Shown: one piece after another, positions 171 through 24,990 of the stretch
Numbering within the stretch: position 1 is the stretch's first letter
Layout: each line of letters begins with the position of its first letter
Source: Thermoanaerobaculia bacterium
GTDB lineage: Bacteria > Acidobacteriota > Thermoanaerobaculia > Gp7-AA8
Reading direction: 5' to 3'
Assembly (NCBI GenBank): GCA_017883265.1
Contig: JADGNX010000001.1
Coordinates: 812-64,811 of the forward strand
Length of the DNA stretch: 64,000 nt
Made by a program: the position numbers and the translations under genes
The notes under the pieces: model-generated
What the model was told of the DNA's origin: nothing
Database searches by the model: none
What the model saw: only the letters and a program-made list of their open reading frames with translations

Positions 171-2885
171 TTGCGCGGAGGGCGTGCAACCCATAAGCTA
201 CAGCGGCGAATGAGCGACGAGGAGAATCTGGACGCCCAGCAACTGGCCATGCTCGTCAAGCGCCTTGACCGGCAACGGCGTGCACGAAACGCTGCCGACG
301 CTATCTCCGAGCAGGCCACCGGAGAACTAACGTATGACCGTCAGCAGCATCTCAAACTGCTCCAGGCAGTGGCGGTTGCAGCGAACGAGTCCCCTTCGCT
401 GGATGACGCGCTGCAGGCCGCGGTCGACGAGGTCTGCGCGTACTTTGGCTTTCCCGTCGGGCACGCTTATCTGGCCATCGGCAACTCGTCGATTCTGGCG
501 TTGAGCGACATCTGGTTCGTCGGGGACTTCGCACGCTTCGAGCAGTTTCGCCTGGCTGTGGAGATGACGCTCATCGCTCCCAGGACCAGCGTAGCCGGCC
601 GCGCGCTGACTCAACGCGCGCCAGCCAGCTCGTCGGAGCTGGACCGCGTCCTGCCGCCCCCACTGGCGGCGGCCGCGAAGGATGCCGGGCTGGCTGCCGC
701 ATTCGCCTTTCCTGTGATTGGCATCGACGCTCCGGTCGCGGTCCTCGAGTTCTTCGCCACCGAGCCCTTCGTACTCGACGAAGGGATGGACGACGTCATC
801 AGGCGCGTGGGCGACCTTCTCGGCAAAGTCCACGTCCGGACCATGGCTCAGGCCACCTCCAGCAGCTCGCCCGAACAGTATCGACTTCTCTTCGAGGGAA
901 ATCCGAATCCGATGTGGATCCATGATGCCGAATCGTTTGAACTGATTGCCCTCAACGATGCTGCGGCCGCCCAATTCGGTTATACGCGCGACGAGTTGCT
1001 GACGATGACCGTTTTTGACCTGCAGCGTCCTGCGGATCGGGCCGGCGGTCTCCCACCTCGTAGCGGTGCCCTGACTCTGCTGACTCGGGATGGCCACGCT
1101 CTCACCTTCGATGTTACCGGCTACGACATCCGCCTGCCCGGTCGCAATGCGCGCATGACGATGGCCGTCGACATCGATGAGGGCCGTCGCGCCGCGGAGG
1201 GACTGCGTGAGTCGGAACGCCGATTTCGCGAGATGCTCGACACCATCGAGCTTGCGGCGGTCCTTCTCGACGTGGTGGGCCATGTGACGTACTGCAACCC
1301 CTACCTCCTCCACTTGACCGGCTTCGGCAAGGATGAAGTCCTTGGAAACAATTTCTTTGAGCTGTTCCTGCCAGAGGAGAGACGAGATCAGGGAGCGAGA
1401 AACTTCGCATCCAATATCGGCGCCGGCATGATCGCCTCGCACGATGAATCGGAGATCGTCACGCGGCACGGTGAACGCCGCACGATCCTCTGGAACAACA
1501 CCGTTCTGCGCAACTCTCAGGGAAGCATCCTCGGAACGGCCAGTATCGGCTCCGATGTCACCGAGCAGCGCATCGCCGAGAAGCAGCTGGTCTACAACGC
1601 CTTCCACGACTCACTCACCGGCCTGCCCAATCGGGCGCTCTTCCTGGACCGGGTTTCCCATGCCCTCAACCGGGTCAAGCGTGACGGCGGCCAGAACTTC
1701 GCCGTCCTGCTGCTGGACGTCGATCACTTCAAGAACGTGAATGACAGCCTGGGACACGCCATGGGGGATCTGTTGCTCGTGGCCATCGGTGAGCGCCTGT
1801 CGCAGTCGCTGCGCGCGGCCGACACCGTGGCCAGGTTCGGCGGGGACGAGTTCACGATTCTCGTCGAGCCGGTCACCGACGCCACCGGCTCCACCCGCGC
1901 CGCCGAGCGGATCCAGCGTGCCATCGCAGCGCCATTCCTGATCGGCGAGGTCGAGATCTTCGTCTCCATCAGCGTCGGAGTCACTCTGGCCGGACCGGAG
2001 TACGAGGATCCCGGACAGATCGTCCGCGACGCCGACACCGCCATGTACAGGGCCAAGGGCCAGGGGAGAGGCCGGTCCGAGATCTTCGACGCAGACATGC
2101 GCGCCGAGGTCGTGGCTCGCTTACAACTCGAAAATGACCTGCGCCGAGCCGTCGAGCGCGACGAGCTGCGCGTTGTCTACCAACCTCTGGTCCGCCTCGA
2201 CTCGGGTCAACTGGTCGGGTTCGAGGCTCTGGTCCGCTGGCAGCATCCGCGGCGCGGTCTGGTGTCGCCGGCGGCATTCATCCCCGTCGCGGAAGAGAGC
2301 GGCCTCATCGTATCCATCGGGAAATTCGTCCTTGGTGAAGCCTCGCACCAGGCCGCGCTATGGCCCGCTGAGAGCGCGGCGGCGGCTCCCCTTCACGTCA
2401 GCGTCAACGTCTCCACGCGCCAATTCGCCAAGAGCGATCTGGTGGCCGATGTGCGCAGCGCGCTCGATGCCTCCGGCCTTCACCCTTCGCGCCTTCACAT
2501 CGAGGTGACAGAGAGTGTCATCATGCTTCAGCCGGAGGCGGCACTGAAGGTGATGAACGACGTGCGGGCTCTCGGTTGCCGTATCTCGCTCGACGATTTC
2601 GGAACAGGCTACTCATCGCTCAGCTATCTGCATCGCTTCCCGATCGATACGCTGAAGATCGACGCGTCGTTCGTTCGCAATACCAGCCGCGACACGAAGA
2701 ACGTCGAGATCATCCGCTCCATCATTGCCCTGGCCCGTGCGCTGTCCATCGAAGTCGTGGCCGAGGGAATCGAGACCATGGAGCAGCATGCGATGCTGCG
2801 GGATCTGGGCTGCCCGCTCGGTCAGGGCTATCTATTCGCCAGACCGCTTCCCCCCGACCAGGCCCTCGAATTCACCCGCAAATAG
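171..2885 (+). CDS. Multidomain c-di-GMP signalling protein with N-terminal sensory (GAF/PAS-like) regions, a GGDEF diguanylate cyclase domain and an EAL phosphodiesterase domain
   Basis: 904-aa ORF. Contains the literal GGDEF motif (RFGGDEFTIL) and EAL motif (GFEALVRWQHP), followed by the typical C-terminal EAL-domain block (DDFGTGYSSLSYL). Confidence 0.8.
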   Translation: MRGGRATHKLQRRMSDEENLDAQQLAMLVKRLDRQRRARNAADAISEQATGELTYDRQQHLKLLQAVAVAANESPSLDDALQAAVDEVCAYFGFPVGHAYLAIGNSSILALSDIWFVGDFARFEQFRLAVEMTLIAPRTSVAGRALTQRAPASSSELDRVLPPPLAAAAKDAGLAAAFAFPVIGIDAPVAVLEFFATEPFVLDEGMDDVIRRVGDLLGKVHVRTMAQATSSSSPEQYRLLFEGNPNPMWIHDAESFELIALNDAAAAQFGYTRDELLTMTVFDLQRPADRAGGLPPRSGALTLLTRDGHALTFDVTGYDIRLPGRNARMTMAVDIDEGRRAAEGLRESERRFREMLDTIELAAVLLDVVGHVTYCNPYLLHLTGFGKDEVLGNNFFELFLPEERRDQGARNFASNIGAGMIASHDESEIVTRHGERRTILWNNTVLRNSQGSILGTASIGSDVTEQRIAEKQLVYNAFHDSLTGLPNRALFLDRVSHALNRVKRDGGQNFAVLLLDVDHFKNVNDSLGHAMGDLLLVAIGERLSQSLRAADTVARFGGDEFTILVEPVTDATGSTRAAERIQRAIAAPFLIGEVEIFVSISVGVTLAGPEYEDPGQIVRDADTAMYRAKGQGRGRSEIFDADMRAEVVARLQLENDLRRAVERDELRVVYQPLVRLDSGQLVGFEALVRWQHPRRGLVSPAAFIPVAEESGLIVSIGKFVLGEASHQAALWPAESAAAAPLHVSVNVSTRQFAKSDLVADVRSALDASGLHPSRLHIEVTESVIMLQPEAALKVMNDVRALGCRISLDDFGTGYSSLSYLHRFPIDTLKIDASFVRNTSRDTKNVEIIRSIIALARALSIEVVAEGIETMEQHAMLRDLGCPLGQGYLFARPLPPDQALEFTRK

Positions 2886-4795: not shown

Positions 4796-5152
4796 GTGGA
4801 ACGGAAGGTCTATGCGGCGAAGGCGGCGTTTCCCATCCGCGAGGTCTGCTCGCGGCTCGAGGAGCGCCTGGCCCTCAGGAAGTTCCCGAAGATCGAGGTC
4901 GACGTCGAAGCGGGGACGCGATGGGAGTACGCCTCATCCGGGAACAAAGCCGTTACGCTCACCGTGACCCAGCTGGTCAAGAGCGTCAACCCGACGACCC
5001 ACAGAACGATGTGGGACGCACCTGAAAAGAACTATCAATTCATCGTCACTCTTCTACGCGATAGCGACACGACATTCGAGCGCGTAGCGCAGCAGATCGG
5101 CCTGGCTTTGGAGAGCCGGCTGGAGCCTTACCCCACCGATTGGAAGTTCTGA
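4796..5152 (+). CDS. Hypothetical protein
   Basis: 118-aa ORF in an otherwise empty gap. No recognisable motifs. Confidence 0.3.
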   Translation: MERKVYAAKAAFPIREVCSRLEERLALRKFPKIEVDVEAGTRWEYASSGNKAVTLTVTQLVKSVNPTTHRTMWDAPEKNYQFIVTLLRDSDTTFERVAQQIGLALESRLEPYPTDWKF

Positions 5153-5180
5153 AGCGCGGAACAGCCGCTCCACTCCGCTA

Positions 5181-5516
5181 TCAGACGACTGTGGTCGTTC
5201 CCAGCCGCGAGTCACCGATGAACGAGGCGAGAGTCCGAAGTGCGGATTCGACCTGCCGAGCATCGCTCGTGGCGCCGATGGAGAGACGAACGGCCTGGGA
5301 CGGACTCGAGCGGCTTACCGCAAACGATGACGCCGGGGCCACGGCGATCCCGCGCAATCGAGCACGGTCGGCGATCTCATGAGCCTCCATTCCGTGGGGC
5401 AGCATCAACCACAAGTGCGGACTCATCGGGTGCGCTGCGACGGAGAGGTGGCCGAGGCCGCCATGATCGTCATCCTCGCGGGTGTGGCGGTCATTCAGTT
5501 TGACCGCCGGCTGCAA
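5181..5516 (-). pseudogene. C-terminal remnant of a PLP-dependent aminotransferase (class I/II or MocR-type C-terminus)
   Basis: 111-aa ORF starting at TTG. LWLMLPHGMEAHEIADRARLRGIAVAPASSF...VRLSIGA resembles only the last ~100 aa of aminotransferases. The upstream in-frame sequence shows no aminotransferase similarity. Confidence 0.4.
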
Positions 5517-5556
5517 GTGGTAAGAAGAACGTGAATCCGGCTGCCCAAGGTAGGAC

Positions 5557-6279
5557 CTATTCCTTCTCGACGCTGAGGCGCGCCATCAGTCGAATGAGGT
5601 TGCGATCCTCCTCGGTCCCTTCGAGATACGTCTGGCAAAGCTCCTCGACCTCGCGCTCGGTTTCGGAGGCCGAGACTGTGAACCCTTCCGCCGGCTGCTC
5701 GGGCGTCCGGCTCCACTTTGTTTCCCATCTCCGGTCGATCAGTGTGCAGCGAAGGTAACCTCGCTCGATCGCTACGGAAGATTTCGGGAGAATCTTCTCG
5801 TCGCCCTCATCGACTGGCACGCCTCCAACCGCTGCGACGATCCCTTCCCGGAATACAGGCATGACCGGTGGGGTGGCGGGAAGCACTCCGCGCGCGTTGG
5901 CCACTTGCTCGGCCAGGGAGCGGGTCACGACTGTGGAGACCAGATCCCTCAGTGCGCTGGCCGCCTCTCCTTTGTAGTCGGTAAAGGAGAGACCCGACTG
6001 ATACACGGTCGTTCCGTCCTCCCCTTCGGCAAAGCGATGGACGCGGCAGGAGACGACCTGAGCGCTCGTCTCGATCTTCGTCTCGTTCCACTGAAACCGG
6101 AACGCCGAGGTTTTCCGGAGCTCCACGCGATTGAAATGTTCGATCCGTGCACCGATATCCGTGATGTCGAGGATGATCGCTCCCATGCCTCCGAACCTGG
6201 CGATCAATCCCCGGGTCAGCTGGATCCGGGTCTTGCTCCGCCGCTCCGAGGGACGCACGGCCCCGCTTCTCGTCAACAT
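5557..6279 (-). CDS. PilZ-domain (c-di-GMP-binding-like) protein with an unknown C-terminal domain
   Basis: 240 aa. N-terminal RRSKTR (RxxxR) followed ~25 aa later by DITDIGARI (D-x-S/T-x-x-G), matching the bipartite PilZ c-di-GMP binding signature. Lies directly downstream of the ABC/M1 gene on the same strand. Confidence 0.5.
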   Translation of the reverse strand: MLTRSGAVRPSERRSKTRIQLTRGLIARFGGMGAIILDITDIGARIEHFNRVELRKTSAFRFQWNETKIETSAQVVSCRVHRFAEGEDGTTVYQSGLSFTDYKGEAASALRDLVSTVVTRSLAEQVANARGVLPATPPVMPVFREGIVAAVGGVPVDEGDEKILPKSSVAIERGYLRCTLIDRRWETKWSRTPEQPAEGFTVSASETEREVEELCQTYLEGTEEDRNLIRLMARLSVEKE

Positions 6280-6343
6280 TCCAGCGCGATCTTACATCGC
6301 CACCCTGGCCAGGTACGTGTGGTACCGGTGACTTCCGCCGAGT

Positions 6344-9300
6344 CTAGTTTGCACCGACTTTCTTCGTGTTGTCTTCAGGATTCCGGTCGATCAGCTTATT
6401 GAGCGGATCGATCCCTCCCTTCGACGGTTTCCCGCTCACGACGAAGTCGAACGATGTCTGTCGTGCCGTGAGATGGTGCTTCTCCAGAATGAGGACCTTA
6501 TCGTCGTTCTTCGAGGAGCCGCTGGACAGCACTCCCAGGTCGATCCAGTCGTCGAGTGGCACCTCTTTCTCGTCTCCCATCCCGCTGGCGCGCAGCTTCT
6601 TCGCCTCCACCGTGGCCCGAACGTGGTATCTGCCGTCGGCCGACTTCGTCGATGTCAGCGCAACGTCCTTATTGTCGTAAAGCGTAATCGTCTCGAAGAG
6701 ATCGTGAATGATCGACTGGCGGTCGAGCGGCGTCATGGCCCGGAACTGCGCTACGAGCTCGCTGCTCCGCACATACGGCGGTCCCTTGAAGGCCCAGCGA
6801 CCGATGATGTTGCGGAGCGCGCGATTGACACCCTCTTCGCCGATGTAGTCACGGAGCGCATACATGACCAGCGATCCCTTCCGGTAATGAACGTATGCCT
6901 GATTCTCAACCAGCATCAGAGGCATCTCGGCGATCAATTCCCCTCCGCGTCCCTGCAGGTACGAGTTCAGCTCATGCGCCAGGAACTTGCGCATCTGGTC
7001 CCGACCGTATTCTTTCTCCATGACCATGAGTGCCGAATATTGGGCCATCGTTTCGGTGATCATCGTTGCTCCCTGCACCTGAGCACCGATGACCTGATGG
7101 GCCCACCATTGATGTGCGACTTCGTGAGCCGTGACATAGAAGACGTAGTCGATCGCCGTCTTGTCGCGCAGGTCGGCGATGAAGCCAATCGATTCAGAGA
7201 AAGGGATGGTATTGGGAAAGGACTGAGCGAAACGGGCGTAGCGGGGAAACTCCAGGATGCGGACCTGTTTGTGCTGGTAGGGAGAGAAGTTCGCCGTGTA
7301 GTAGTCGAGCGATCGCTTGACCCCGTCGATCATCCGGTCGACGTTGTACGGATGCTTCGCGTCGAAGTAGACCTCGATGGCCACATCCTTCCAGTGATCG
7401 CGCCTGACCTGATATCGAGCCGACAGGTACGACCAGAATCCGAGGATTGGCGATGTCGTCTTGTAGTGAAAGTAGTGGCGGCCGTTCGTGGTCCAATCCT
7501 TCTGCAGATAGCCGGGGGCGATGGCAATCTGATCCCCTGAAGTGCTGACGGTCGTGTCGAGATTGAGCCAGTCCGATTCCGAGGTCAGCTCATTGATGTT
7601 GCGCGCGACCGGATCATCGATCTTCGGCAGACGCTCGGCCGGCCCGAGACCGTACTTCTTCCGTTTGTTTCGGTCCTGCAGCTCAGCCACGGGCTGATAT
7701 GCAAGGTGGGGGAAATAAGCGAAGTTGTTGACGAAGGTGCCGTTGGCGACGATGTCGGTGTTGGCATTCGAGTTGACGAAGCCCTGACTCTCGACCTTGA
7801 CGGTGTATCGCATCGGCAGGGTCGCTCCGGCCGCCAGGGGAGGCGAGAGACGGTAGATGGTGTAGCCGAAGTTCCGGTCGTCGGAGCGAACCGCGGCGCC
7901 CGGAATGGTGATCGTATACGACGTGACGTCCGGATTCATCGAGACGTGCAGCTCCGGGATCGGGGCACCGCTCTTGTTCACGAGGGTATACGCGCCGCGG
8001 ATCTCCAGTGCCAGCCGTTCCGGATAAATGTCGACGTCGGCCCGGACGTCTGTGATCTTCGGTTGCGCCAGATACTGAAATCGCTTGTATTTCTTCTCGT
8101 ACTCAGCCGACCGCTTTTCGTTCTGGTCGGTCGTCCGATAGTGGTTGAGAATGTTGGTGTTGTAGTAGATGTAGCAGCCGCTGAAGACGAAGGCCACCGC
8201 CAGGAGCGCGAATACGGTTCGAGCAGGAGCGCCGAAGCGCGCCGCGGCAATCCGCAGTCGGGTTCGCATCGCGGTCTCGGAGCCTCGCACCCACATGAGA
8301 TGCCCGGCAACGATGAGGATGCCGCTGAATAGAAGCCAGTAGAGGTTGAACCACACCAACGGCTGCACAAAATGCCCAAAGCCGTTCATGTCCGAGTAGG
8401 GGGATGGCGGCGTCTGGGCGAAACGATAGAGGTAGTGCTCGAAGTGCATGGCCGGCAGCACCGCCAGGCTCACAAAGTACAGCAGCATGCACAGGAAGCC
8501 GACATACTTGTTGTTGGCCAGCACTTGTAGAAAGAACGCCAGCGTGGCGATCATGAACATGGGTAGAAGGCTGTCTGCCAGCAACCCTCTGGCGTAGAGC
8601 CCGAGCTCGTAGTTGTGATACCCCTTGGCGGTCTGCACGACGATGGTGGCCAGCACCGCCGTGGCCATGAGGAAGACGACCATGGCCCAGAGAGCCGCCA
8701 GCTTGCCGCCCCACACCGCGGAGCTGCGGACCGGCATCGAGTCGGTGACATCGCTCAGTTTCATCTGACGCTCGCGCCAGACGATCTCCCCCGCAAAAAA
8801 GGTCACGATGATCAGAGCGAAGAGGACGAAAGAGCCGGCGATCGTTCGCAGCATGACTCCGGTGACCGGATAGATCTTGGTATCGAACAATGAATCGGCG
8901 AAGGCAGCTCCGCCGGTCACGTTCAGCAATCCCAGAAAGAGAATGATGAGAAACGGCACGCTCTTGACGACGCTGGCCAGCTCGAGTCGGAAGGTGCTTC
9001 CGAACTGTGAAAGCCATGCACCGGCGTCGAAGCGCTGCGACGCGATCCCACTCCTGAGCGAAGCAGCGTTGTGCGGGCTCGCGGACAGCAACCCGGAATC
9101 GGCCGGCTCGGCGCCCTTCTGTTTCGACTTTCCCGACTTTCTTGGTCCGCTCTCGACGCGAAACCTCCAGACGGTGAAGACGAATACTGCGACGCCCACT
9201 CCGACCCAGAGAATCCGGTTCCAGAGAAAGATCCCTTCGAGTGGAAGCACCTTGGTATTGCGCTCGGCGACCGTCCAGTACCGCGTGGCCAGTGCGAACG

Positions 9301-9946
9301 AAGAGAGGCCGAAAGGATCGAACAGACTGGCGACCTTCTCGTACTCGAGATTGTTGCCGATGAACGAGTTGGCCACGACATAACTGACCAGAAACCCCAC
9401 CGCGCTGGCATAGGTGGCCATCGTGCTCCGCGTCAGGACGGCAACACAGAAGAAGATCGACGCGACGAGAAAAACGGTCGGGAGGACGAGCACGAAGAGC
9501 GAGTAGAGATACGGAACGAGGGTGAAGGCCCCGACCCGCTCCTTCTCCAGCCACGGCATGAAGCTGCCGATCATGATGCCTGCCACCACGCCGAGGTAGA
9601 CGAGGAAGGAGATGAAGACCGAGCCGGTGAAGCGGCCGAGGAGGTAGTCGCGCTTGCGGATTGGTGAAGAGAAGAAGAGGGAATCGGTGGACAGATCGTA
9701 GTCGCGCAGCGCGGCGTTGGACACGAATGCGGTCGTGGTGAAGACGGCGAAGACCGACATCACCAGCAGGAACTGCATGATGACGAACGGAGCGTTTCGA
9801 TGAACGTTGCCGATGCTGCCACCGATCTGCACGCTGTCGCTCGTCACCGCGCCGAAGGTCAGGAAAAAGAAGATGATCAGGCAGACGTAGAAGACGAGCT
9901 GCTTGAGGTGGTAGCGCGTTTCGAAGCGAATGAACTCCCTCAGCAT
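6344..9946 (-). CDS. Fusion protein: N-terminal ABC-2-type multi-pass permease and C-terminal M1-family zinc aminopeptidase
   Basis: 1200 aa. The first ~590 aa are dominated by hydrophobic TM segments. The C-terminal half contains the gluzincin motif HEVAHQWW with a downstream E, plus M1-like blocks. Confidence 0.75.
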   Translation of the reverse strand: MLREFIRFETRYHLKQLVFYVCLIIFFFLTFGAVTSDSVQIGGSIGNVHRNAPFVIMQFLLVMSVFAVFTTTAFVSNAALRDYDLSTDSLFFSSPIRKRDYLLGRFTGSVFISFLVYLGVVAGIMIGSFMPWLEKERVGAFTLVPYLYSLFVLVLPTVFLVASIFFCVAVLTRSTMATYASAVGFLVSYVVANSFIGNNLEYEKVASLFDPFGLSSFALATRYWTVAERNTKVLPLEGIFLWNRILWVGVGVAVFVFTVWRFRVESGPRKSGKSKQKGAEPADSGLLSASPHNAASLRSGIASQRFDAGAWLSQFGSTFRLELASVVKSVPFLIILFLGLLNVTGGAAFADSLFDTKIYPVTGVMLRTIAGSFVLFALIIVTFFAGEIVWRERQMKLSDVTDSMPVRSSAVWGGKLAALWAMVVFLMATAVLATIVVQTAKGYHNYELGLYARGLLADSLLPMFMIATLAFFLQVLANNKYVGFLCMLLYFVSLAVLPAMHFEHYLYRFAQTPPSPYSDMNGFGHFVQPLVWFNLYWLLFSGILIVAGHLMWVRGSETAMRTRLRIAAARFGAPARTVFALLAVAFVFSGCYIYYNTNILNHYRTTDQNEKRSAEYEKKYKRFQYLAQPKITDVRADVDIYPERLALEIRGAYTLVNKSGAPIPELHVSMNPDVTSYTITIPGAAVRSDDRNFGYTIYRLSPPLAAGATLPMRYTVKVESQGFVNSNANTDIVANGTFVNNFAYFPHLAYQPVAELQDRNKRKKYGLGPAERLPKIDDPVARNINELTSESDWLNLDTTVSTSGDQIAIAPGYLQKDWTTNGRHYFHYKTTSPILGFWSYLSARYQVRRDHWKDVAIEVYFDAKHPYNVDRMIDGVKRSLDYYTANFSPYQHKQVRILEFPRYARFAQSFPNTIPFSESIGFIADLRDKTAIDYVFYVTAHEVAHQWWAHQVIGAQVQGATMITETMAQYSALMVMEKEYGRDQMRKFLAHELNSYLQGRGGELIAEMPLMLVENQAYVHYRKGSLVMYALRDYIGEEGVNRALRNIIGRWAFKGPPYVRSSELVAQFRAMTPLDRQSIIHDLFETITLYDNKDVALTSTKSADGRYHVRATVEAKKLRASGMGDEKEVPLDDWIDLGVLSSGSSKNDDKVLILEKHHLTARQTSFDFVVSGKPSKGGIDPLNKLIDRNPEDNTKKVGAN

Positions 9947-10049
9947 CGGTCATCCCTGAAAGACGTTTGCGTCGTCAGCGGACCAGAGTACGGCCCCCTG
10001 AACGCCGGACGCTTCCGGCGCTTCGCCGTGCTGTCGACGAAGGTCCGTC

Positions 10050-11006
10050 TCATGCCGCATGGTGAAGCGTTGAAAAGTAGACGTCTTCGAGTGACGCATT
10101 CACCGGCTCGAATGTTTCGCCGGGGCTCGATTCACTGTAAACGTGGACCACGGTGCGTCCAGCCACGAGGCGGCTGGAGATCACGGCATGGTCGCGCTGA
10201 TACCCTTCCAGCTCGTTTCGGGGAACGGCGCGCTGCCAGATCCGGCCACCGATGGCCCCGATGGCCTCGGCCGGGTCGCCGGTCATCAACACCCGGCCGT
10301 GAGAGATGATGGCCATCCGGCTGCAGAGGTCGGAGACGTCCTCGACGATGTGCGTCGAGAGAATGACGATGACGTTCTCTCCGATCTCGGCCAGGAGATT
10401 GTGAAAGCGAACCCGCTCGCCCGGATCGAGTCCGGCCGTCGGTTCATCCACGATGATCAACTTCGGCGATCCCAGGAGCGCCTGAGCGATCCCGAAGCGC
10501 TGCCGCATACCGCCGGAGAAGGTCCCGAGGTTCTGCTTGCGGACGTCGAAGAGGTTGACGCGCTCGAGGAGAGCGTCGACCACTTCCTTCCGTTCTTTCG
10601 CGGCGGTCAGACCCTTGAGGACCGCGAAGTGGGTCAGCATCGTCTCGGCGGAGATCTTCGGATAGACGCCGAATTCCTGCGGCAGATATCCGAGAATGCG
10701 CCGGACCTCGTCCTTCTGAACCAACAGATCGAGATCGAGCTCCCCAATGCGCGCCGATCCCGAGTCGGCCTCCTGCAAGGTAGCCAACGTTCGCATGAGC
10801 GTCGACTTGCCGGCGCCGTTCGGCCCCAACAGGCCGAACATCCCGGTAGGAATCGTCAGTGTGACGTCCGACAACGCGCGCACACCATTCGGGTAAGTCT
10901 TCGACAGGCCGCGGATCGAAAGCTCCAGCATCAACCCTCCCAGAAAGTCGCGGATCATCGGATCATACGGTTCCCTTGCTACATTAGTTGCGACCGGCGG
11001 AGTCAA
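10050..11006 (-). CDS. ABC transporter ATP-binding protein
   Basis: 318 aa with Walker A GPNGAGKST, ABC signature LSGGMRQR and Walker B LIIVDEPTAGLD. Confidence 0.9.
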   Translation of the reverse strand: MTPPVATNVAREPYDPMIRDFLGGLMLELSIRGLSKTYPNGVRALSDVTLTIPTGMFGLLGPNGAGKSTLMRTLATLQEADSGSARIGELDLDLLVQKDEVRRILGYLPQEFGVYPKISAETMLTHFAVLKGLTAAKERKEVVDALLERVNLFDVRKQNLGTFSGGMRQRFGIAQALLGSPKLIIVDEPTAGLDPGERVRFHNLLAEIGENVIVILSTHIVEDVSDLCSRMAIISHGRVLMTGDPAEAIGAIGGRIWQRAVPRNELEGYQRDHAVISSRLVAGRTVVHVYSESSPGETFEPVNASLEDVYFSTLHHAA

Positions 11007-11040
11007 CCCTCAGCCTGAACAAGGACCCTGGGGATCTACT

Positions 11041-11667
11041 TTATGGATGGGGATCGGGTCGCGGCACCCGTGGCGGCGCGCCGGCCTCGATCGCAAACCG
11101 CTCGAATATCTCGTAGGGCTGGCAGCCGCTGAGGCCGAGGTTGCCGATGATGAACGTCGGGATCCCATGGACGCCGACCTCGCTGGCCTCGTCGCGAGCG
11201 TCGTCGACGCGCGCCAGGATCAGCGGATCGCGCGAACGCTCCACGGCATTCTCCGCGAGGCCGGAGTCCAGGGCAATCGCGGCCAGGTCGACGTCGTTCT
11301 CGAGGTCCATACCATCGCGCCAGTGCGCGTCCATGGCCCTCGTTCTGAAGGCCTCGAGCTTCCCTTCATCGCGCGCCACCTCGGCCAACGCCAGTGCGCG
11401 ACGCGTATTCGGAATCCGCTCGCGCTGCTGGAAGTCGTCGATGCCGAACTGCGAAGCGAAACGCTTCATGTAAGCCGCCATGCCGGACAGCTTATCGGCT
11501 GGGAACATCTCGTCGAGCCGCGCTCCGCCCGCCGGTGTCTCCGGATGAAGCTCGAACCCGCGCCAATCGAGCTCCAGATCGAATTCCCCGAGCAGCCTGA
11601 CCAGACTGCTTCGCTCAGCGATATAGCAGAACGGTCAGACGAAGTCGGAGTAAAGGCGAAGTTGCAT
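11041..11667 (-). CDS. FrnE/DsbA-family thiol:disulfide oxidoreductase with an in-frame TGA (candidate selenocysteine) replacing the first Cys of the CxxC motif
   Basis: ATG at 11667..11665 is preceded by an in-frame TAG. Translation gives MQLRLYSDFV-[TGA 11637..11635]-PFCYIAERSSLVRLLGEFDLELDWRGFELHPE, continuing in frame into the track ORF 11041..11508. This matches the FrnE N-terminus ([20 protein letters not shown]). The total 208 aa equals FrnE length. Confidence 0.55.
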
Positions 11668-11817
11668 GCGGAGGTTCTAATGCAAGAGCGTTCTCAGAGC
11701 AATCCTTAGAGCTGGGCATGACCCTGTTCGTCTCTGGGAATGAAGACTGCAAATGCGTCGCGAGGACGGCACGCTCCGTGCAGTCGCTATCGCCAGTCTT
11801 TCCCGCTGAGCTCGTAG

Positions 11818-11874
11818 CTCAAAGCGGTCTCTCTCGGCCTCCGCGTTCCACGCGCGGAGGCCTTCCTTGTTTTA
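11818..11874 (+). terminator. Terminator-like element, copy 1: 10-bp GC stem (GGCCTCCGCG / CGCGGAGGCC), 6-7 nt loop, then T-rich tract
   Basis: Perfect inverted repeat 11836..11845 / 11853..11862, followed by ttccttgtttt. A conserved 5' flank aaagcggtctctctc is shared with copy 2. Confidence 0.4.
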
Positions 11875-11975
11875 AGCGACTGGGTGCCGGTATTTTCGGG
11901 CATCCATCAGATTGCTGTTCTACGGGTGCCATTTGCAGTGTCTACCTTGTTGAACTCACCCGCTTTTCGCCCCTG

Positions 11976-12030
11976 CCCAAAGCGGTCTCTCTCCCGGCCC
12001 CCGCGCTGCACGCGGGGGCTTTTCTTTTGG
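11976..12030 (+). terminator. Terminator-like element, copy 2: stem GGCCCCCGCG / CGCGGGGGCT, 5-nt loop, then T-rich tract
   Basis: Same architecture and 5' flank as copy 1. The stem differs from copy 1 at one base pair, with the change on both arms (T/A to C/G), so pairing is preserved. Followed by tttcttttgg. Confidence 0.4.
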
Positions 12031-12062
12031 GCCACCTCGCGGCGTCCAGGGTGCAGTCCGCT

Positions 12063-12359
12063 TCACCGGCTATAGAACTCGACAGCTGAGATGCCGCCTT
12101 GCGAGTCGAAGATCGTTTCCGACCGCAGGCCCGATGTGCCCTTCATACTGTGGTTCCGCTGAAGATGCTCGCGCATGTCGTTGTGGACGGCAGGGTTACT
12201 GGTCGGTCCGGCGCTATCCATCGAACCACAGATGGAGCAGGTGTAGCGAATTCGGCCCTCATGCCACGCCAGAGCATCCACGATGAATGTTGCGACAATC
12301 GAGCGATACCCTGACTCTCCCGAAGGCGGATCCTCGACCCTCACGACACTCGCCCCCAC
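12063..12359 (-). CDS. Small hypothetical protein with a possible C2H2-like zinc-binding motif
   Basis: 98 aa. YTCSICGS ... AVHNDMREHLQRNH gives C-x2-C ... H-x4-H spacing. No other support. Confidence 0.25.
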   Translation of the reverse strand: MGASVVRVEDPPSGESGYRSIVATFIVDALAWHEGRIRYTCSICGSMDSAGPTSNPAVHNDMREHLQRNHSMKGTSGLRSETIFDSQGGISAVEFYSR

Positions 12360-12573
12360 CGCCTGCGCGTAAGAACCGTGAGGGCGAATAAGAGAGGGCA
12401 GTCAGCGGTCATTCGCCCAACGATAGCAGGGACAAAATGGCGGGGAGATTAACGCGCTCGGTCGTTCCCCTGACTGACGAAGTTACAGGGGGGCGGTTGC
12501 GTCGCGAGGAGCGCGAAACGTCTTTGAACGCGTAGGCCAGACCGGCGGCAGGCGTTTGAGATTCTCAATGAGG

Positions 12574-15789: not shown

Positions 15790-18381
15790 TTAGTGCACTG
15801 GTTCGTCGTCTTCCGGGACCTCCGAATCGGGTTCCTCGACTGAATCATCCTCGGGGAGATCGGCGTCATCAAGACTTGTCTCGGGAATCGCCACTTCCAC
15901 CCCTGCGGCGTCGAGCTCTTCCTCTGCATTGTCCCTCTCGACGATCTTGACCGCAGCAACGACGCTGTCGGCATCATCCACGTTGATCAGGCGGACGCCC
16001 TGGGTCGAGCGACCGATGGATCGGATCGTAGCGCAGGCCACGCGGATGATCTTCCCCTGTTCCGTAATGAGCAGCACCTGATCCTCAGCGGCTACGTGCT
16101 TGATCCCTGTGACTTTTCCATTCTTTTCGGTCGTCTTGATGTTGATGACGCCCAGTCCGCCCCGGGTCTGGAGGCGATACTCGTCAACGGCCGTGCGTTT
16201 GCCGAAGCCCTTCTCAGTGACCGTGAGGATCTCGCCGGGCTCGGACTTTCGCAGCACGTCCATCTCCACAACATAGTCGCCCTCGCGCAGGGTGATGCCC
16301 TTGACTCCCGCCGCTCCTCTTCCCATCGGCCGCACGTCTTCTTCGCTGAAACGGATGGCCACTCCGTTATGCGTTCCGATGAAGATCTGTGAATCGCCGT
16401 CGCTGGTATCGACGCTGTGAAGATCGTCGCCCTCGTTGATGTCGATGGCGATGATGCCCGCCGCGCGTGGATTGGAAAAGGCCGACAGCTCGGTCTTCTT
16501 GATCTTTCCGCCCCGCGTCGACATGACCACGTACTTCGCCGCGTTGTTGAAGTCACGTACCGTCAGAAGCGCGCGAACGTTCTCCCCCTGCTCGACCTGA
16601 AGCAGGTTGACGATGGCCTTGCCGCGCGCCGCGGTGCCCACCTCGGGCAGGGTGTGGACCTTCAGCCAGTAAAGACGCCCGCGATCGGTGAACACCAGGA
16701 TGTAGGCGTGCGTGGAGGCGACGAAAAGATGCTCCACGATGTCCTCTTCCTTCGGGATCATCCCGATCTTTCCTTTGCCGCCGCGGCGCTGCTCGCGATA
16801 GAGGGAGAGCGGAGACCTCTTGATATACCCGCCGCGCGAGACGGTGATCACCATGTCCTCTTCGGTGATCATGTCCTCGATGCTGATCTCGCGCGTCTCG
16901 GCCACGATCTCAGTGCGCCGTGGGTCGCCGTACTGTTCCCGGATCTGGCGGAGCTCACCGGCGATGATCTCCAGGACCAGGCGCTCGGAGGCCAGAATCT
17001 CTTTGAGCTTCTTGATGAGAGCCTGCACCTCCTGGTATTCGGTGACGATCTTGTCCCGCTCCAGACCGGTGAGACGCTGCAAGCGCATATCGAGGATGGC
17101 CTGGGCCTGAATCTCGGAGAAGGCGAACTCTCCCACCAGTCCGCTCTTGGCCTCGCCCGGTGTGGGACTTCTGCGGATCAGGGCGATGACCGCGTCGAGA
17201 TGATCGAGGGCCTTGACCAGTCCCTCGAGAATGTGAGCGCGCTCTTCGGCCTTCCGGAGATCGTAGCGGGTGCGGCGGACGACGATCTCTTTACGATGGT
17301 CGATGAAGTGCCGCAGCATCACCGGCAGGCTCATGACCTGCGGCTGGTTGTTGACGATGGCCAGGAAGATGATCCCGAAGGTCGTCTGCATCTGCGTATT
17401 CTTGTAGAGGCTGTTGAGGACGACTTCAGGGACCTCATTCCGCTTGAGCTCGATGGCCACTCGGATGCCGTCCCGGTCCGATTCGTCGCGGAGATCGGCG
17501 ATTCCTTCGATGCGTTTGTCGCGAACCAGTTCGGCAATCTTTTCGATCAACCGGGCCTTGTTCGTCATGTAGGGGATCTCGTTGATGATAATCGACTGCT
17601 TGTCGCTCCCTTTTTTCGGCGTCTCGATGGTGACGCGGGCCCGCAGCTGGATGATGCCGCGGCCGGTTTCGTAGGCCTGGCGGATGCCGTCCAGTCCATG
17701 AATGAAGCCGGCGGTCGGGAAGTCGGGGCCCGGCAACACGGTCATCAGTTCAGAGACGGTCGCGTTCGGGTTGTCGATGACCATGAGACAGGCGTCGATG
17801 ATCTCGCCGAGATTGTGCGGGGGAATGTTGGTTGCCATTCCGACGGCGATGCCGGAGGAGCCGTTGACGAGCAGGTTCGGGTACTTTGCGGGGAGGACGG
17901 AAGGCTCGGATAGTGAGCCGTCGTAGTTCGGTACCCAGTCGATGGTCTCCTTGTCGATGTCATCCCGCATCAGCTCTTCGGCCAGTTTGGTCAGACGGAC
18001 CTCGGTGTATCGCATGGCGGCCGCGTTGTCGCCGTCGAGCGACCCGAAGTTGCCCTGACCGTCGACCAGCCGGTAGCGCATCGAGAAATCCTGGGCCATG
18101 CGGACGACCGCATCGTAGATGGCGCTGTCGCCGTGCGGATGAAACTTGCCCATCACGTCGCCTACGATACGAGCCGATTTCTTGTAAGCCTTATTGGCCG
18201 TATTGCCCTGCTCATACATCCCGTAGAGGATGCGGCGGTGGACAGGCTTGAGGCCGTCGCGGACGTCAGGCAGGGCCCGCCCGATGATGACGGACATGGC
18301 GTAGTCGAGATACGACTTGCGCATCTCGTCTTCGATGTTGACCGGGATCCGGAGGTCGTCGATTAGCTGGTAGTCGGACAT
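15790..18381 (-). CDS. gyrA: DNA gyrase subunit A
   Basis: 863 aa with the canonical N-terminus [24 protein letters not shown], the active-site region AAMRYTE and an acidic C-terminal tail. Confidence 0.95.
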
Positions 18382-18572
18382 GGGTGCGAGTGTGCTCCGT
18401 TGCAGGCCTGGGGGCAGCGGGTTTCCGGGACCGGTCGGGTAACCGCTTTAACGGACTGCCTTTAAAGTCTGTATTTCCTTGCGATATAATGCTCGCAATA
18501 CTGAATACTATTAAATCGTTCTATTAACAACGTCGCGATACAAACGATTATCACCGCGTGATAACGTTGCTT

Positions 18573-20960
<2,388 letters not shown>

Positions 20961-20982
20961 TCAGTCGTTTTCTCGTGGTTGT

Positions 20983-21000
20983 GACTCCGATTTCGGAGTC
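20983..21000 (-). promoter_or_regulatory. Stable hairpin in the recF-gyrB intergenic region / gyrB 5' leader
   Basis: GACTCCGA-TT-TCGGAGTC perfect inverted repeat (7-8 bp stem), 22 nt upstream of the gyrB start codon. Confidence 0.3.
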
Positions 21001-21145
21001 CATTCGGCGTTCGCTCAGAGCTGCTTCGTGTCGGCCATCCCGCTGCGTAGGTCTCGCGTTACGAACGCGGACTGAGGACCGCCTTTCGGAACATTAATTG
21101 TGTATGGAAAATTCTCATTTTACGCCTTGGGGAAGGGCTCTCCTC

Positions 21146-22252
21146 TCAATGTTCGGAGACCTCGACCGCCCTACCGCCGTCCATCGCAAAACGCCGGTGC
21201 GGTCCTGTCTCTAAAGCGCTGATTACAGACTGTTTAGCAGACGTCGCGAAGAGCTGGGTGGCCGCGGGCAGATTCAGGAGCACCGCTTCGAGGATGTCGA
21301 CGTCGAGCTCGGCATCGATATCGTCGAGTACGAAGACGGCGGCCTCACCGGTCTCGTCGCGAAAATGCTCCAGTTTGGCGAATTTGAGAAACAGGACGAT
21401 CGTCTTGAGCTCCCCGCCCGAGAGGACCTCGGCGGCCGGCCTTCCTTCAAGCTCGAAAGCCACGTTGTCCCGCTGCGGTCCGACCAGAGTCATCCGGCTG
21501 CGCAACTCCTGTCGCTTCACCTCCTGGAGGCGCTGGCGCCAGGCGCCGGGGTCGCCCGAAGCCTCACCGCCCGGCAGGTAACGAAGCGTGAGGCCCGTGA
21601 CGTGGTAGCGGTAGCGGTCCACCGTAGCCCCGAGCAACGCCGAGATCCGCCTGGCATAGTCCGCCCGGGCCGCGGAGACCGGAATGGCCGCGAGCAGAAA
21701 CTCTTCATCCCACGCGTCCAGGTCGGACGCCCGGGCCTGACGCGCAGCAATTGCGTGGAGGAGCGCGTTCCGCTGTTTGAGCGCACGCTGGAAACGATTG
21801 AGCCGCTCGAGATAGCCTGGTTCCACGCTCGCGATGCCCCGGTCGAGAAACCGGCGCCGGTCTTCGGGCCCACCACGGATGATCTCCAGCCGAGAAGAGG
21901 AGTAAGCGATCACGGTCAGACTCTGGAGGTAGCGGCCGAGCGGCACCCTCTCGGCATTGATCGTCAGGACCCGCCGCGACTCCCCGGGATCGACTCCCGC
22001 GGATAGCGTCTGGGTCACACCCTGGCGCGCGATATCGCCGTTTACGAAAAGGTACGACTGCCCGAAACGGATGAGGCTCTGGGTCCTGGCAGTGCGAAAG
22101 GACTTGGTGGTGGCGAGGAAATAGACAGCCTCGAGAAGATTCGTCTTCCCCTGGCCGTTCATGCCGACGACCAGATTGACCGCCGGATGAAACCGATACT
22201 CGGCAGCTTCGAGGTTGCGAAAATTCTCGCTGCTCAGTCGCTCGAGAATCAA
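21146..22252 (-). CDS. recF: DNA replication and repair protein RecF
   Basis: 368 aa. N-terminal Walker A GMNGQGKTNLLEA, C-terminal VLDDIDAELD (Walker B/D-loop). Confidence 0.9.
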   Translation of the reverse strand: MILERLSSENFRNLEAAEYRFHPAVNLVVGMNGQGKTNLLEAVYFLATTKSFRTARTQSLIRFGQSYLFVNGDIARQGVTQTLSAGVDPGESRRVLTINAERVPLGRYLQSLTVIAYSSSRLEIIRGGPEDRRRFLDRGIASVEPGYLERLNRFQRALKQRNALLHAIAARQARASDLDAWDEEFLLAAIPVSAARADYARRISALLGATVDRYRYHVTGLTLRYLPGGEASGDPGAWRQRLQEVKRQELRSRMTLVGPQRDNVAFELEGRPAAEVLSGGELKTIVLFLKFAKLEHFRDETGEAAVFVLDDIDAELDVDILEAVLLNLPAATQLFATSAKQSVISALETGPHRRFAMDGGRAVEVSEH

Positions 22253-22256
22253 ATCG

Positions 22257-23381
22257 CTATGCGATCCGCATCGGCATGACGACGTAGAGATACTCGTACG
22301 ACAGATCGTCTGCCGCGGCGGCCGGTCGCCCGATGCACTGACTGTTCTCGTCCTTCAGTTCCAGCGAGACGTTCGGCGTGTCGACTGCGCTCAGAAAATC
22401 GGTCACGTAGGCCGCGTTGAGGCCCACGAAAAACGTCGCTCCGGCATAATCGATGGGCACCGTCTCCCGGGCGTCTCCGAGCTCCGGATTGGTCGACGAC
22501 ACGGTGAGCTTTCCCGGCGCGAAATCGAAACGGACCGCGCGCGTCCGCTCATTCGCCACGAGGGAGATCCGGCGAATCGTAGACAGCAGGCGTTCGCGGT
22601 CGACCATGACGCGACGGTCGTTGTCGCGGGCGATTACTTCCATGTAATTGGGGAAATTCACGTCGATCATGCGAGCTAGAAGCCTTCGATCGCCCGCTTC
22701 GAAGAAAAGGTGGTTTTCCGAGGTGCCGAATTGCACCAGGCCGTCTTCAGAAGCCTCGAGCCGCAGGATCTCATGAAGCGCCTTCCGTGGAATGAGAATG
22801 GTCAGCTCCTCGCTCTTCTTATGCCCGACGGTCTGGGCGAAGTTGATGAGCGCCATTCTGTGTCCGTCGGTAGCCACCATCTCCATCTTCGACGGTTGGA
22901 CTTTCAGAAGGGCGCCGTTCAACTGGAAACGCGTCTCTTCATGGGTGATGGCGAAAATCACCTTGCCGACCATTGTCTTCAGCTCATCGAGCGGCATGGA
23001 ATAGGGGTCTGTCGAGGTGACCGTCGGAAGCGTTGGATAGTCCTCCGCCGGCAGACCCAGCAGCCGGAACTTGGCGGTACCCGATTCGACCTGCAGAGAG
23101 AAATTCTCCTGCAGCGTGAGCTTGACGTCATCGTTTGGCAGGGAACGGATCACATCGAAAAAGCGGCGCGCCTCGATTGTGACTCCGCCTTCTGTGATGA
23201 CGGTTGCCGGGCAGGAGCTGAGGATCGTGACATCGAGGTCGGTGGCGGCGATCTCGAGCCGGCCATCAGTGGCCTTGATCAGAACGTTCGACAAAATCGG
23301 AATCGTCGAGCGTTTCTCGACAACTCCCTGGCAAAGCTGCAGCTCCTTTTGCAGATCAGCTTTGGCGAGCGTCAGCTCCAT
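22257..23381 (-). CDS. dnaN: DNA polymerase III beta sliding clamp
   Basis: 374 aa with three-domain clamp similarity (MELTLAKADLQKELQ...). The 4-nt gap to recF is the typical dnaN-recF arrangement. Confidence 0.9.
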   Translation of the reverse strand: MELTLAKADLQKELQLCQGVVEKRSTIPILSNVLIKATDGRLEIAATDLDVTILSSCPATVITEGGVTIEARRFFDVIRSLPNDDVKLTLQENFSLQVESGTAKFRLLGLPAEDYPTLPTVTSTDPYSMPLDELKTMVGKVIFAITHEETRFQLNGALLKVQPSKMEMVATDGHRMALINFAQTVGHKKSEELTILIPRKALHEILRLEASEDGLVQFGTSENHLFFEAGDRRLLARMIDVNFPNYMEVIARDNDRRVMVDRERLLSTIRRISLVANERTRAVRFDFAPGKLTVSSTNPELGDARETVPIDYAGATFFVGLNAAYVTDFLSAVDTPNVSLELKDENSQCIGRPAAAADDLSYEYLYVVMPMRIA

Positions 23382-23625
23382 GTCTATTCCTTTTAAAACA
23401 GAGACTCTTTAATTTGTGGTTGTAGTAGTAGATGCGTGCGGAAAAACTCGGAGTGAGTGCCAAGTGCCTCAAAAGTATAGCAGTCTTCGCAGGCGGGCCG
23501 TGTGGAGATCGTCGAGGAAAACGAGTGGATTACTCCTGAGTTTTCCACCGTGGTGACGGGCCGCTTTTTCGGCCTCTCGCTTTTCCGCAGGATTTAGGCA
23601 CTCATTCCGCAGACCGTCGCGGAAA
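23382..23625. other. Candidate oriC (dnaA-dnaN intergenic region) with an AT-rich stretch and degenerate DnaA-box-like 9-mers
   Basis: Locally AT-rich (ttttaaaacagagactctttaatttg). Contains TGTGGAGAT, TTTTCCACC and GAGTGGATTA-type matches to TTATCCACA with 1-2 mismatches. Confidence 0.4.
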
Positions 23626-24933
23626 TCATCGAAAGTGCTTGATCATCATATCGAGCGTGCTGGCCACCGATTGATCCTCCTGGCGCAGCTTGTCGATCTT
23701 CTCGACCGAGTAGATGACTGTCGAATGATGTTTGTTGTTGAAGAGTTTTCCTATTTCCGGATAGGAAAGATCGGTCAGTGACTTGCAGATGAACATGGCC
23801 ACCTGGCGTGGATAGGCCACGGGACGCGCGTTCGATTTCGACTTCAGGTCGGAAACCTTGATCCCATAGTGAGCGGCTACGAGTTTCAGGATCTCCGTCG
23901 CTGTGATCGGCTTGTTCTCCTTCGAGAGAAGATCGCGGAGTGCCTCCTTGGTCAGATCGAGGTCGATCCGATGGCCAGTGAGTGACGCGAATGCGGCGAC
24001 CCGGTTCAGATGACCCTCGAGCTCCCTGATGTTGGACCGCACACGCTCCGCCACAAAAAGCGCCACGTCATCGGGCAGAAACAATTTCCGATCCTCGGCC
24101 TTCTTTCTGAGAATGGCCACCTTCGTCTCCAGATCGGGAGGCTGGATGTCGGCGATCAGTCCCCATTCGAAACGGGAGCGGAGCCGGTCTTCAAGCGTCG
24201 GTATATCCCTGGGCGGTGCATCGGAGGTAAATACGATCTGTTTCTGCGCTTCGTACAGAGCGTTGAAGGTGTGGAAAAACTCCTCCTGCGTTCGCTCTTT
24301 GCCGGCCAGGAATTGAATATCGTCGAGCAGCAGCGCGTCGACTGACCGATAACGATCTCGAAACGAGCTCATACGGTCGTAGCGGATCGAGCTGATGAGC
24401 TCCGTGACGAACGAATCGGCCGACATGTAGACGACCTTCAGCGTCGGATTCTGTTGCTTCATCTGCTGGCCGATGGCCTGGATGAGGTGCGTCTTTCCGA
24501 GGCCTGCGCCTCCGTAGATGAAGAGAGGATTGAACGAGCCGCTCGGCTTCTCGGCGATGGAGAGCGAGGCGGCATAGGCCAGTTGATTCGAGCTCCCAAC
24601 CACGAACGTGCTGAAGCGGTATCGCGGGTTGAACAGTGCGGTGGGGGGCTCGGTCGGCGGCGGCGGAGCGGACCCGGATGGCGCCTGCTGATGCGCGGAG
24701 GCGTCTGCGACGAAATGAATTTTGGTCCGGTCTGACGCGAGCTGGCTGAGGATCGATCGGATCTGTGGACTGTAGCGATCGGAGATCGCGTCGACGAACC
24801 GTTCGTCCGGGACTCTCACTTCAATGGTCTCGCCGCGAGCCGCCAGAAAGGTGGTCGGAGCGAACCAGGTCTCGTACTCCGACCGGTCTACGGTTTGCTC
24901 GAGCCGGAGCAGGACTTCGTTCCAGAGATTCAT
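23626..24933 (-). CDS. dnaA: Chromosomal replication initiator DnaA
   Basis: AAA+ block GGAGLGKTHL and C-terminal DNA-binding helix-turn-helix (VAMFICKSLTDLSYPEIG). The start is placed at MNLWNEVLLRLEQ (ATG 24933), matching the usual DnaA N-terminus. The track ORF extends 87 nt further over the DnaA-box palindrome. Confidence 0.85.
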   Translation of the reverse strand: MNLWNEVLLRLEQTVDRSEYETWFAPTTFLAARGETIEVRVPDERFVDAISDRYSPQIRSILSQLASDRTKIHFVADASAHQQAPSGSAPPPPTEPPTALFNPRYRFSTFVVGSSNQLAYAASLSIAEKPSGSFNPLFIYGGAGLGKTHLIQAIGQQMKQQNPTLKVVYMSADSFVTELISSIRYDRMSSFRDRYRSVDALLLDDIQFLAGKERTQEEFFHTFNALYEAQKQIVFTSDAPPRDIPTLEDRLRSRFEWGLIADIQPPDLETKVAILRKKAEDRKLFLPDDVALFVAERVRSNIRELEGHLNRVAAFASLTGHRIDLDLTKEALRDLLSKENKPITATEILKLVAAHYGIKVSDLKSKSNARPVAYPRQVAMFICKSLTDLSYPEIGKLFNNKHHSTVIYSVEKIDKLRQEDQSVASTLDMMIKHFR

Positions 24934-24960
24934 GCGAGGAGGGGGCGTATCTGTCTGATG

Positions 24961-24990
24961 TTCCACAACTTTTCCACAATTGTGGAAATC
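24961..24990. promoter_or_regulatory. Cluster of DnaA-box-like sites, including the perfect palindrome TTCCACAATTGTGGAA, upstream of dnaA (autoregulatory operator candidate)
   Basis: TTTTCCACA (one mismatch to TTATCCACA) at 24970..24978. The 16-bp palindrome at 24972..24987 reads as two inverted boxes. Confidence 0.5.

Follow-up and report, generated by a model that had tools for sequence, protein, structure and literature searches.

Among described transporters, the closest relative of the system reported here is family 3.A.1.145 of the Transporter Classification Database (TCDB), the peptidase-fused ABC-2 family of ATP-binding cassette (ABC) transporters (PMC3924187). Its prototype, Myxococcus xanthus Q1D520 (3.A.1.145.1), is a protein of ~1200 aa with 13 predicted transmembrane segments (TMS), an N-terminal ABC-2 domain and a C-terminal Peptidase_M1 domain, for which export of an amino-acid derivative was proposed in the TCDB entry without evidence (PMC3924187). 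A gene of this type lies on a stretch of 64,000 nt of contig JADGNX010000001.1 from a Thermoanaerobaculia (Acidobacteriota) bacterium (the window, by which the whole analysed stretch is meant). It is one of four co-directional genes on the minus strand, which encode, in order, an FrnE-like selenoprotein, an ABC ATPase, the permease::M1 fusion and a PilZ-like protein. A preliminary description of this DNA had read the four as a single regulated device for export and processing. The comparison reported here points instead, with moderate confidence, to one conserved two-gene machine, composed of the ATPase and the permease::peptidase fusion and flanked by two unrelated genes, which would most likely export a substrate and cleave it. 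The four genes are the following:

11667..11041, minus strand: FrnE-like selenoprotein gene (COG2761-type), with an in-frame TGA at 11637-11635 and a DSBA match; outside the conserved module.
11006..10050, minus strand: ABC ATPase, with the TTG start as called; member of the conserved two-gene module.
9946..6344, minus strand: permease::M1 fusion, 1200 aa.
6279..5557, minus strand: PilZ-domain protein, 240 aa; a neighbour limited to the lineage.

The fusion shows no architectural difference from TCDB 3.A.1.145: it comprises 1200 aa, 13 TMS and an M1 domain, and it aligns over its full length, at 44-48% identity, with the fusions of Myxococcales and Archangium loci, which serve here as a proxy for Q1D520. 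It is a Thermoanaerobaculia member of that family, which has stood in the catalogue, functionally uncharacterised, since 2013. A look-up of the exact sequence returned no record, although a 100%-identical cluster representative exists. The preliminary description had remarked that such fusions are annotated yet functionally uncharacterised, and this agrees with the literature, in which the TCDB catalogue entry is the only account found (PMC3924187).

Relatives of the locus were collected by scanning one genome of each species for sequence patterns, which yielded 584 species-level loci with a fusion relative; FAQSFPNT, a motif of the peptidase module, was one of the two patterns used to retrieve them. 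Neighbourhoods were counted in the best 80 of the 584 loci, whose fusions are 39-74% identical to that of the window over the best aligned segment. These 80 loci span Acidobacteriota, Gemmatimonadota, Myxococcota, Bacteroidota, Ignavibacteria and Alpha-, Beta- and Gammaproteobacteria, and include the cultured genera Stenotrophomonas, Microbulbifer, Pontibacter, Rufibacter and Oleisolibacter. The ATPase adjoins the fusion in every locus with enough flanking DNA (76/76). In 75 loci it precedes the fusion on the same strand, with a gap of <200 nt in 73 of them and a median gap of ~35 nt, and in one it lies directly downstream of the fusion; the remaining 4 of the 80 loci end without upstream DNA. 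FrnE-like and PilZ-like homologues, sought by tblastn, are found in none of the 80, so that the co-occurrence of the fusion with FrnE-like genes, which the preliminary description had proposed to look for in other genomes, is not seen among them. Further partners were searched for by all-versus-all clustering of every open reading frame (ORF) from 83 loci, and conservation is confined to the fusion itself, with 83 loci, and the ATPase, with 79. These loci show no conserved substrate-binding protein gene near the fusion. A cluster of response regulators (receiver-domain proteins) present in 13 loci was considered as a third partner and rejected, being heterogeneous and located 1-8 kb off at varying distances.

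The order of all four genes is seen only in the two closest relatives recovered, designated L081 and L090 in this analysis, and the content of the block varies among the other close-relative loci:

L081: fusion 87% identical to that of the window; order FrnE, ATPase, fusion, PilZ.
L090: fusion 89% identical; order FrnE, ATPase, fusion, PilZ.
L082: fusion 83% identical, followed directly by EamA; PilZ absent.
L083: fusion 72% identical; without FrnE and without PilZ.
L091 and L092: FrnE 85.5% identical, followed directly by orf118 and DinB; the entire ATPase/fusion/PilZ block absent.

The block-wise absence in L091 and L092 suggests that the two ABC genes entered or left this lineage together, by insertion or loss. 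The fusion gene of L090 appears split, and its reading as a pseudogene was rejected, the interruption being a scaffold gap of 100 N. In other Thermoanaerobaculia, PilZ-like orthologues (61-64% identity) are found beside a Ser/Thr kinase or a metallo-beta-lactamase gene, and FrnE-like orthologues beside a P450 or an aldo-keto reductase gene. Nucleotide alignment of the window with L081 shows a conserved ATPase-fusion spacer; the FrnE-ATPase and fusion-PilZ intergenic DNA does not align, and the gaps that flank the ABC pair in L081 measure ~200-260 nt. Downstream of the PilZ gene, comparison with the intact genes of relatives reveals one further feature:

5181..5516, minus strand: deletion scar, recognized by blastn against L081 and L082.

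In the scar, 54 nt from an EamA 3′ end are fused to the final 279 nt of a GntR/aminotransferase (MocR-type) gene; lost in its formation were an acetyltransferase gene, the EamA gene and most of the GntR/aminotransferase gene. Gene turnover is thus concentrated between FrnE and orf118. The far boundary of this variable block is orf118 itself (4796-5152, plus strand), which encodes a 118-aa protein; five relatives have it at 88-94% identity, and in every case it adjoins a DinB-family gene. Within the block the ATPase and the fusion alone keep together as a unit, and FrnE and PilZ are chance, recent and lineage-specific neighbours.

These comparisons bear directly on the model of the preliminary description, in which the FrnE-like protein would handle the disulfides of the cargo, the ABC-M1 fusion would export and trim it, and the PilZ protein would add control by cyclic di-GMP (c-di-GMP). 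The arrangement of the genes in this genome is compatible with such a device. ORF coordinates confirm the four co-directional genes and the intergenic gaps of 34, 103 and 64 nt that had been described, these being the values obtained with the called starts; the order recurs in L081 and L090, the PilZ motifs for c-di-GMP binding are intact, and a GGDEF-EAL gene lies ~2.7 kb away. The start of the ATPase is uncertain: two in-frame ATGs, at 10958 and 10931, fit the homologues better than the TTG, since homologue alignments start near residue 21-26 of the called protein, and either would widen the first gap to 82-109 nt. The promoters and terminators between the genes that the preliminary description had named as evidence against an operon are not seen either, in scans that are not decisive in this phylum: no terminator-like site occurs on the coding strand within any of the three gaps and no sigma-70-like promoter in 5000-12500. 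The three coding-strand terminator-like matches are weak and all intragenic, and the total number of matches is no higher than in shuffled sequence. Co-transcription of all four genes is accordingly possible in this genome. Functional coupling of the four is nevertheless not supported and is contradicted by the comparative data, given the lack of FrnE and PilZ homologues in the 80 other loci, the unrelated neighbourhoods of their orthologues, the loss of PilZ from L082 and the retention of FrnE without the ABC genes in L091 and L092. The wide flanking gaps of L081 leave room for separate promoters, and the FrnE-like protein is predicted to be cytoplasmic whereas the peptidase is predicted to be periplasmic. 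The four-gene device is thus a very improbable reading of the locus.

The ATPase of the conserved pair gives a clear Pfam match (ABC_tran, E = 6e-28) and resembles DrrA and GldA, yet scores too low for any NCBIfam equivalog. All its motifs are intact: the Walker A motif GPNGAGKS, the Q-loop, the signature FSGGMRQR, the Walker B motif IIVDEPTAGLD and the H-loop STH. The spacer between the ATPase and the fusion, which is the one conserved with L081, contains a perfect 7-bp hairpin, CGCCGGA-AGCG-TCCGGCG (10003-10020, minus strand), which has no T-run on its 3′ side and is not a canonical terminator.

The fusion itself is divided into two membrane domains and a peptidase module:

9161..9946, minus strand: first six-helix ABC-2 domain (type V, NosY-like), fusion residues 1-262.
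8162..8980, minus strand: second six-helix ABC-2 domain, TM7-12, with a loop and a 13th helix, fusion residues 323-595.
6344..8161, minus strand: M1-fold zinc metallopeptidase module, fusion residues 596-1200, predicted periplasmic.

Hydropathy and the distribution of charges arrange the helices as 6+6+1, the second domain being followed by an Arg-rich cytoplasmic loop (residues 554-572) and an extra 13th helix (573-595). The N terminus and the loops rich in Lys and Arg (K+R) are assigned to the cytoplasm, namely 71-107, the linker 263-322 (9 K+R), 387-409 and 554-572 (5 K+R). An AlphaFold2 (AF2) model of the fusion (predicted local distance difference test (pLDDT) 82, predicted template modelling score (pTM) 0.76) has helices that agree with hydropathy. 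Since the 13th helix crosses the membrane and the K+R-rich loops fall on alternate sides, residues 596-1200 are placed in the periplasm. The preliminary description had called for a topology prediction to locate the M1 domain on one side of the membrane or the other, and the sequence thus predicts a periplasmic module.

The family relationships of the membrane domains emerge mainly from their fold. The match to Pfam ABC2_membrane_4 is weak (22.8 bits versus a cutoff of 27), and profile searches of each membrane half against the sequences of the Protein Data Bank (PDB) return no match even at E = 10. In structure comparison the membrane domains resemble NosY (PDB 7o0y) most closely, followed by PmtD, Rv1217c and ABCG2. 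The six-helix ABC-2 fold, together with the partner ATPase, is that of a type V ABC transporter. The two membrane halves are collinear but their alignment is weak (hhalign E = 0.0097, probability 4%), and an internal duplication is weakly supported. The fusion differs from the NosDFY complex in that NosY is a separate dimerising protein with six transmembrane helices and NosD a separate protein that is not a peptidase, whereas in the window two such domains share one chain, to which a metallopeptidase is covalently attached; no nos genes are present near the fusion.

The peptidase module (residues 596-1200) consists of an N-terminal β domain, a thermolysin-like catalytic domain and a C-terminal β-sandwich. 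It matches Pfam Peptidase_M1 (E = 1.5e-9) and adopts the M1 fold according to structure comparison. Two of its motifs are central to its assignment:

7112..7126, minus strand: HEVAH zinc motif, H941-H945, by alignment to ERAP2.
7217..7231, minus strand: FAQSF, residues 906-910, at the position of GXMEN.

Alignment to ERAP2 further identifies E965 as the third zinc ligand and Y1021, within HYRKG, as the catalytic Tyr. The zinc motif and catalytic Tyr of M1 peptidases are hence complete, with one extra residue in the HEVAH-X19-E spacer, which has 19 residues rather than the canonical 18. The intact HEVAH...E motif noted in the preliminary description is therefore confirmed, with zinc ligands and catalytic Tyr conserved, though at this altered spacing. 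In a set of 78 full-length fusions from diverse bacterial groups, FAQSFPNT, HEVAHQWW, E965 and HYRKG are ≥90% conserved, and the catalytic domain is the most constrained part of the protein (mean identity to consensus 0.73 versus ~0.45-0.6 elsewhere). This degree of constraint, at HExxH, the third Glu ligand and the catalytic Tyr, is hard to reconcile with a non-catalytic binding or receptor domain. Use of the whole system for peptide uptake or nutrient scavenging is equally at odds with a membrane fold of type-V exporters and extractors and with the lack of a conserved substrate-binding protein gene nearby, and both of these alternatives are highly improbable.

The exopeptidase features of the M1 family are another matter. 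GXMEN is the M1 exopeptidase signature (PMC10221039); in the HMMER alignment FAQSF stands opposite the GAMEN of ERAP2, and GXMEN is replaced family-wide. The confidence of the AF2 model is low at residues 903-907. The helical domain IV, or lid, is absent as well, the AF2 model ending in the β-sandwich (residues 1087-1196). The module accordingly differs from the canonical M1 enzymes PepN, ERAP1/2 and LTA4H in having FAQSF for GXMEN, a spacer of 19 instead of 18 residues and no domain IV, and also in being tethered to the membrane through its fusion to an ABC permease. Domain IV, which most M1 members possess, is likewise missing from short M1 enzymes such as the two-domain M1 peptidase of Deinococcus radiodurans (6a8z). 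Without the GXMEN motif and the helical lid, the module is probably not a classical aminopeptidase and its active site is probably open, while its fold and zinc site remain those of an M1 zinc peptidase. Of the zinc aminopeptidase named in the preliminary description, the zinc peptidase is thus retained and the aminopeptidase is doubtful, and the name ‘M1 family aminopeptidase' that databases give to the fusion family probably misleads.

The extent of the family was assessed with the peptidase module as the sole query of a full HMMER scan, which gives 1550 cluster representatives (50% identity) at E ≤ 1e-30. Among the best 150 representatives, 128 have ≥1176 aa, with the module at ~580-1200. 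The shorter representatives match right to their own C terminus, and four that were read start in or just before TM12 or TM13; because they look like 5′-truncated fragments, this peptidase subtype is taken to be essentially always fused.

The combination of an exporter fold with similarity to the peptide exporter PmtD favours a machine that exports and cleaves. The ABC ATPase, presumably as a dimer, would bind and hydrolyse ATP on the cytoplasmic side; the type-V membrane domains would extract or expel a peptide, or a peptide-bearing substrate, from the membrane or the cytoplasm to the outer face; and the tethered periplasmic peptidase would then cleave the expelled substrate. Such a machine might serve, for example, in the disposal of membrane-active or membrane-embedded peptides. 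That the ATP cycle delivers a peptide substrate to the tethered peptidase is the more tentative part of this account, and somewhat doubtful. The export and processing that the preliminary description had ascribed to four genes is reasonable for the two-gene core alone. Known peptide exporters offer only partial parallels: in the phenol-soluble-modulin exporter PmtCD the peptidase is absent, and peptidase-containing ABC transporters (PCATs) differ in transporter fold and cut before export, with a C39 cysteine peptidase in the cytoplasm, whereas the window fusion has a zinc peptidase on the exit side.

The same structural data can be read differently. In a machine that moves nothing across the membrane, the ATPase cycle would be relayed by the NosY-like domains to the lid-less M1 module, opening, closing or positioning it, and cytoplasmic ATP or a signal would control the proteolysis of a periplasmic or membrane-surface substrate, by analogy with NosDFY- and FtsEX-type systems. 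NosY is after all the nearest structural relative, the fusion is obligatory across the family, and domain IV, which normally closes the active site, is missing, so that another element would have to gate it. Periplasmic loops also carry strongly conserved motifs (GNVxRNAPFVIMQ, DPFG..ATRYWTV and PYSDMNGxGHF); on average, however, these loops are no more conserved than the cytoplasmic ones, and the matches that rank after NosY (PmtD, Rv1217c and ABCG2) are genuine exporters or extractors. An ATP-gated protease of this kind is rather unlikely, but is the main alternative.

Several considerations weigh against a two-gene machine for export and cleavage. Transport by the fusion is something that we infer, as is its substrate, and no experiment on any member of the family was found in the literature. 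The predicted topology comes from hydropathy, the positive-inside rule and helix counting. The complex to which NosY, the closest structural relative, belongs works by mechanotransmission and is not known to carry out transport. Moreover, given the short gaps and the lack of terminator-like sites in them on the coding strand, FrnE and PilZ could be co-transcribed with the ABC genes and could regulate them. Present evidence does not separate export and cleavage from mechanotransmission.

The two flanking genes belong to families of their own. The FrnE-like ORF begins MQLRLYSDFV-TGA-PFCY, which gives an active site U11-P-F-C14, U being selenocysteine (Sec), and it matches Pfam DSBA with E = 2e-27 when the TGA codon is read as Cys. 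Seven orthologous genes share the in-frame TGA, its flanking codons and the ATG ten codons before it. All close homologues in the protein database are gene calls truncated at the N terminus, and distant ones (52-61% identity) have DFVCPFC. The TGA is followed by a candidate selenocysteine insertion sequence (SECIS):

11591..11610, minus strand: SECIS-like hairpin with an 8-bp stem and a GGUC loop, starting 24 nt past the UGA.

This hairpin is fully paired in 6/6 distinct orthologous sequences, and one pair varies between C-G, U-G and U-A via synonymous third positions. The covariation is not significant (234/500 shuffles reach it), because the sequences vary too little, and the single-sequence minimum-energy fold of the region favours an alternative pairing. 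No tRNA-Sec was found in the 64-kb window, and no Sec-pathway protein among the window proteins scanned. An Rfam scan at gathering and permissive thresholds returns a tRNA-Asn only, and no SECIS or riboswitch family.

A family of DsbA-like (COG2761) selenoproteins that carry UxxC is already known (PMC1088965, PMC13188914). The window gene combines the in-frame UGA, Cys homologues and downstream hairpin of COG2761-type selenoproteins; it shares with the COG2761/FrnE type the UPFC site, the Cys homologues and the SECIS-like hairpin, and differs in lineage only. The gene at 11041-11667 has no conserved link to ABC genes. Nothing at the locus is categorically new, and the selenoprotein comes from a known family. 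Since the UxxC motif occupies residues 11-14 after the start and no signal peptide precedes it, the protein is predicted from its sequence to be a cytoplasmic thiol-disulfide oxidoreductase, and the periplasm-facing orientation ascribed to it in the preliminary description has to be abandoned. By contrast, the identities given there to all four genes, and the reading of the TGA as selenocysteine, stand on Pfam matches, motifs, orthologues and fold.

The PilZ-like protein of the window has no Pfam match even at E = 10, but 23 of 47 members of its family match Pfam PilZ (best E = 2.3e-7), and the receptor motifs R14xxxR18 and D38xTxxG43 (Thr for Ser) are invariant in the 47 sequences. The top Foldseek matches of its AF2 model (pLDDT 70) are the PilZ domains of YcgR, MapZ, MotI and MrkH, and BcsA is also matched. 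The PilZ barrel occupies approximately residues 12-105 (~nt 5965-6246). Family matches, invariant motifs and fold thus uphold the PilZ call, and the protein is probably a c-di-GMP receptor. Homologues number 234, and all those with a taxon label are from Thermoanaerobaculia. The C-terminal half (5557-5964, minus strand) is a conserved domain of ~130 aa with invariant SLAEQVANARG, MPVFR, GY.RC, GFT and LC motifs; neither Pfam nor the PDB contains a relative, and residues 131-172 are modelled at low confidence. The family can be described as an ordinary single-domain receptor with a C-terminal extension. A GAF-PAS-GGDEF-EAL protein, of a type involved in c-di-GMP turnover, is encoded at 171-2885 (plus strand), ~2.7 kb from the PilZ-like gene, with no functional link in evidence; in L090 a GGDEF-EAL gene likewise lies a few kb past the PilZ-like gene.

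On the other side of the block, an element composed of a GC-rich hairpin and the exact 16-mer GAGAGAGACCGCTTTG occurs in two tandem copies (11820-11862 and 11978-12020), ~160 nt apart, against 0.05 matches expected. On the plus strand, antisense to the gene cluster, both copies have the form of strong hairpin-plus-T-run terminators, and the 361-nt region that contains them has a folding z of -5.2. The element belongs to no Rfam family above threshold and was not found in any of 92 related loci; its copies could be two small RNAs or a repeat element. Farther along, the window covers the chromosomal origin region (15790-33991), with gyrA, gyrB, recF, dnaN and dnaA on the minus strand (15790-25020) and, on the divergent plus strand, rpmH (25189-25323) followed by rnpA, yidD, yidC, mnmE, mnmG and parB.

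The two-gene core represents a large family without functional study, comprising ~1550 clusters at 50% identity and present in at least 584 species-level genomes. To its description the present analysis adds the refutation of the four-gene model, the assignment of the peptidase module to the periplasm, the NosY-like nature of the membrane domains and the lack of both exopeptidase motif and lid. The family is carried by cultured hosts, among them Stenotrophomonas, Microbulbifer and Pontibacter, and Myxococcus xanthus by way of the TCDB prototype. It is conceivable, if doubtful, that these fusions are not transporters but ABC-powered periplasmic proteases of a new class, in which cytoplasmic ATP hydrolysis, relayed by the NosY-like domains, would gate a lid-less, non-aminopeptidase M1 endopeptidase. 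If so, diderm bacteria would gain a means of energy-dependent, regulated proteolysis in the ATP-free periplasm.

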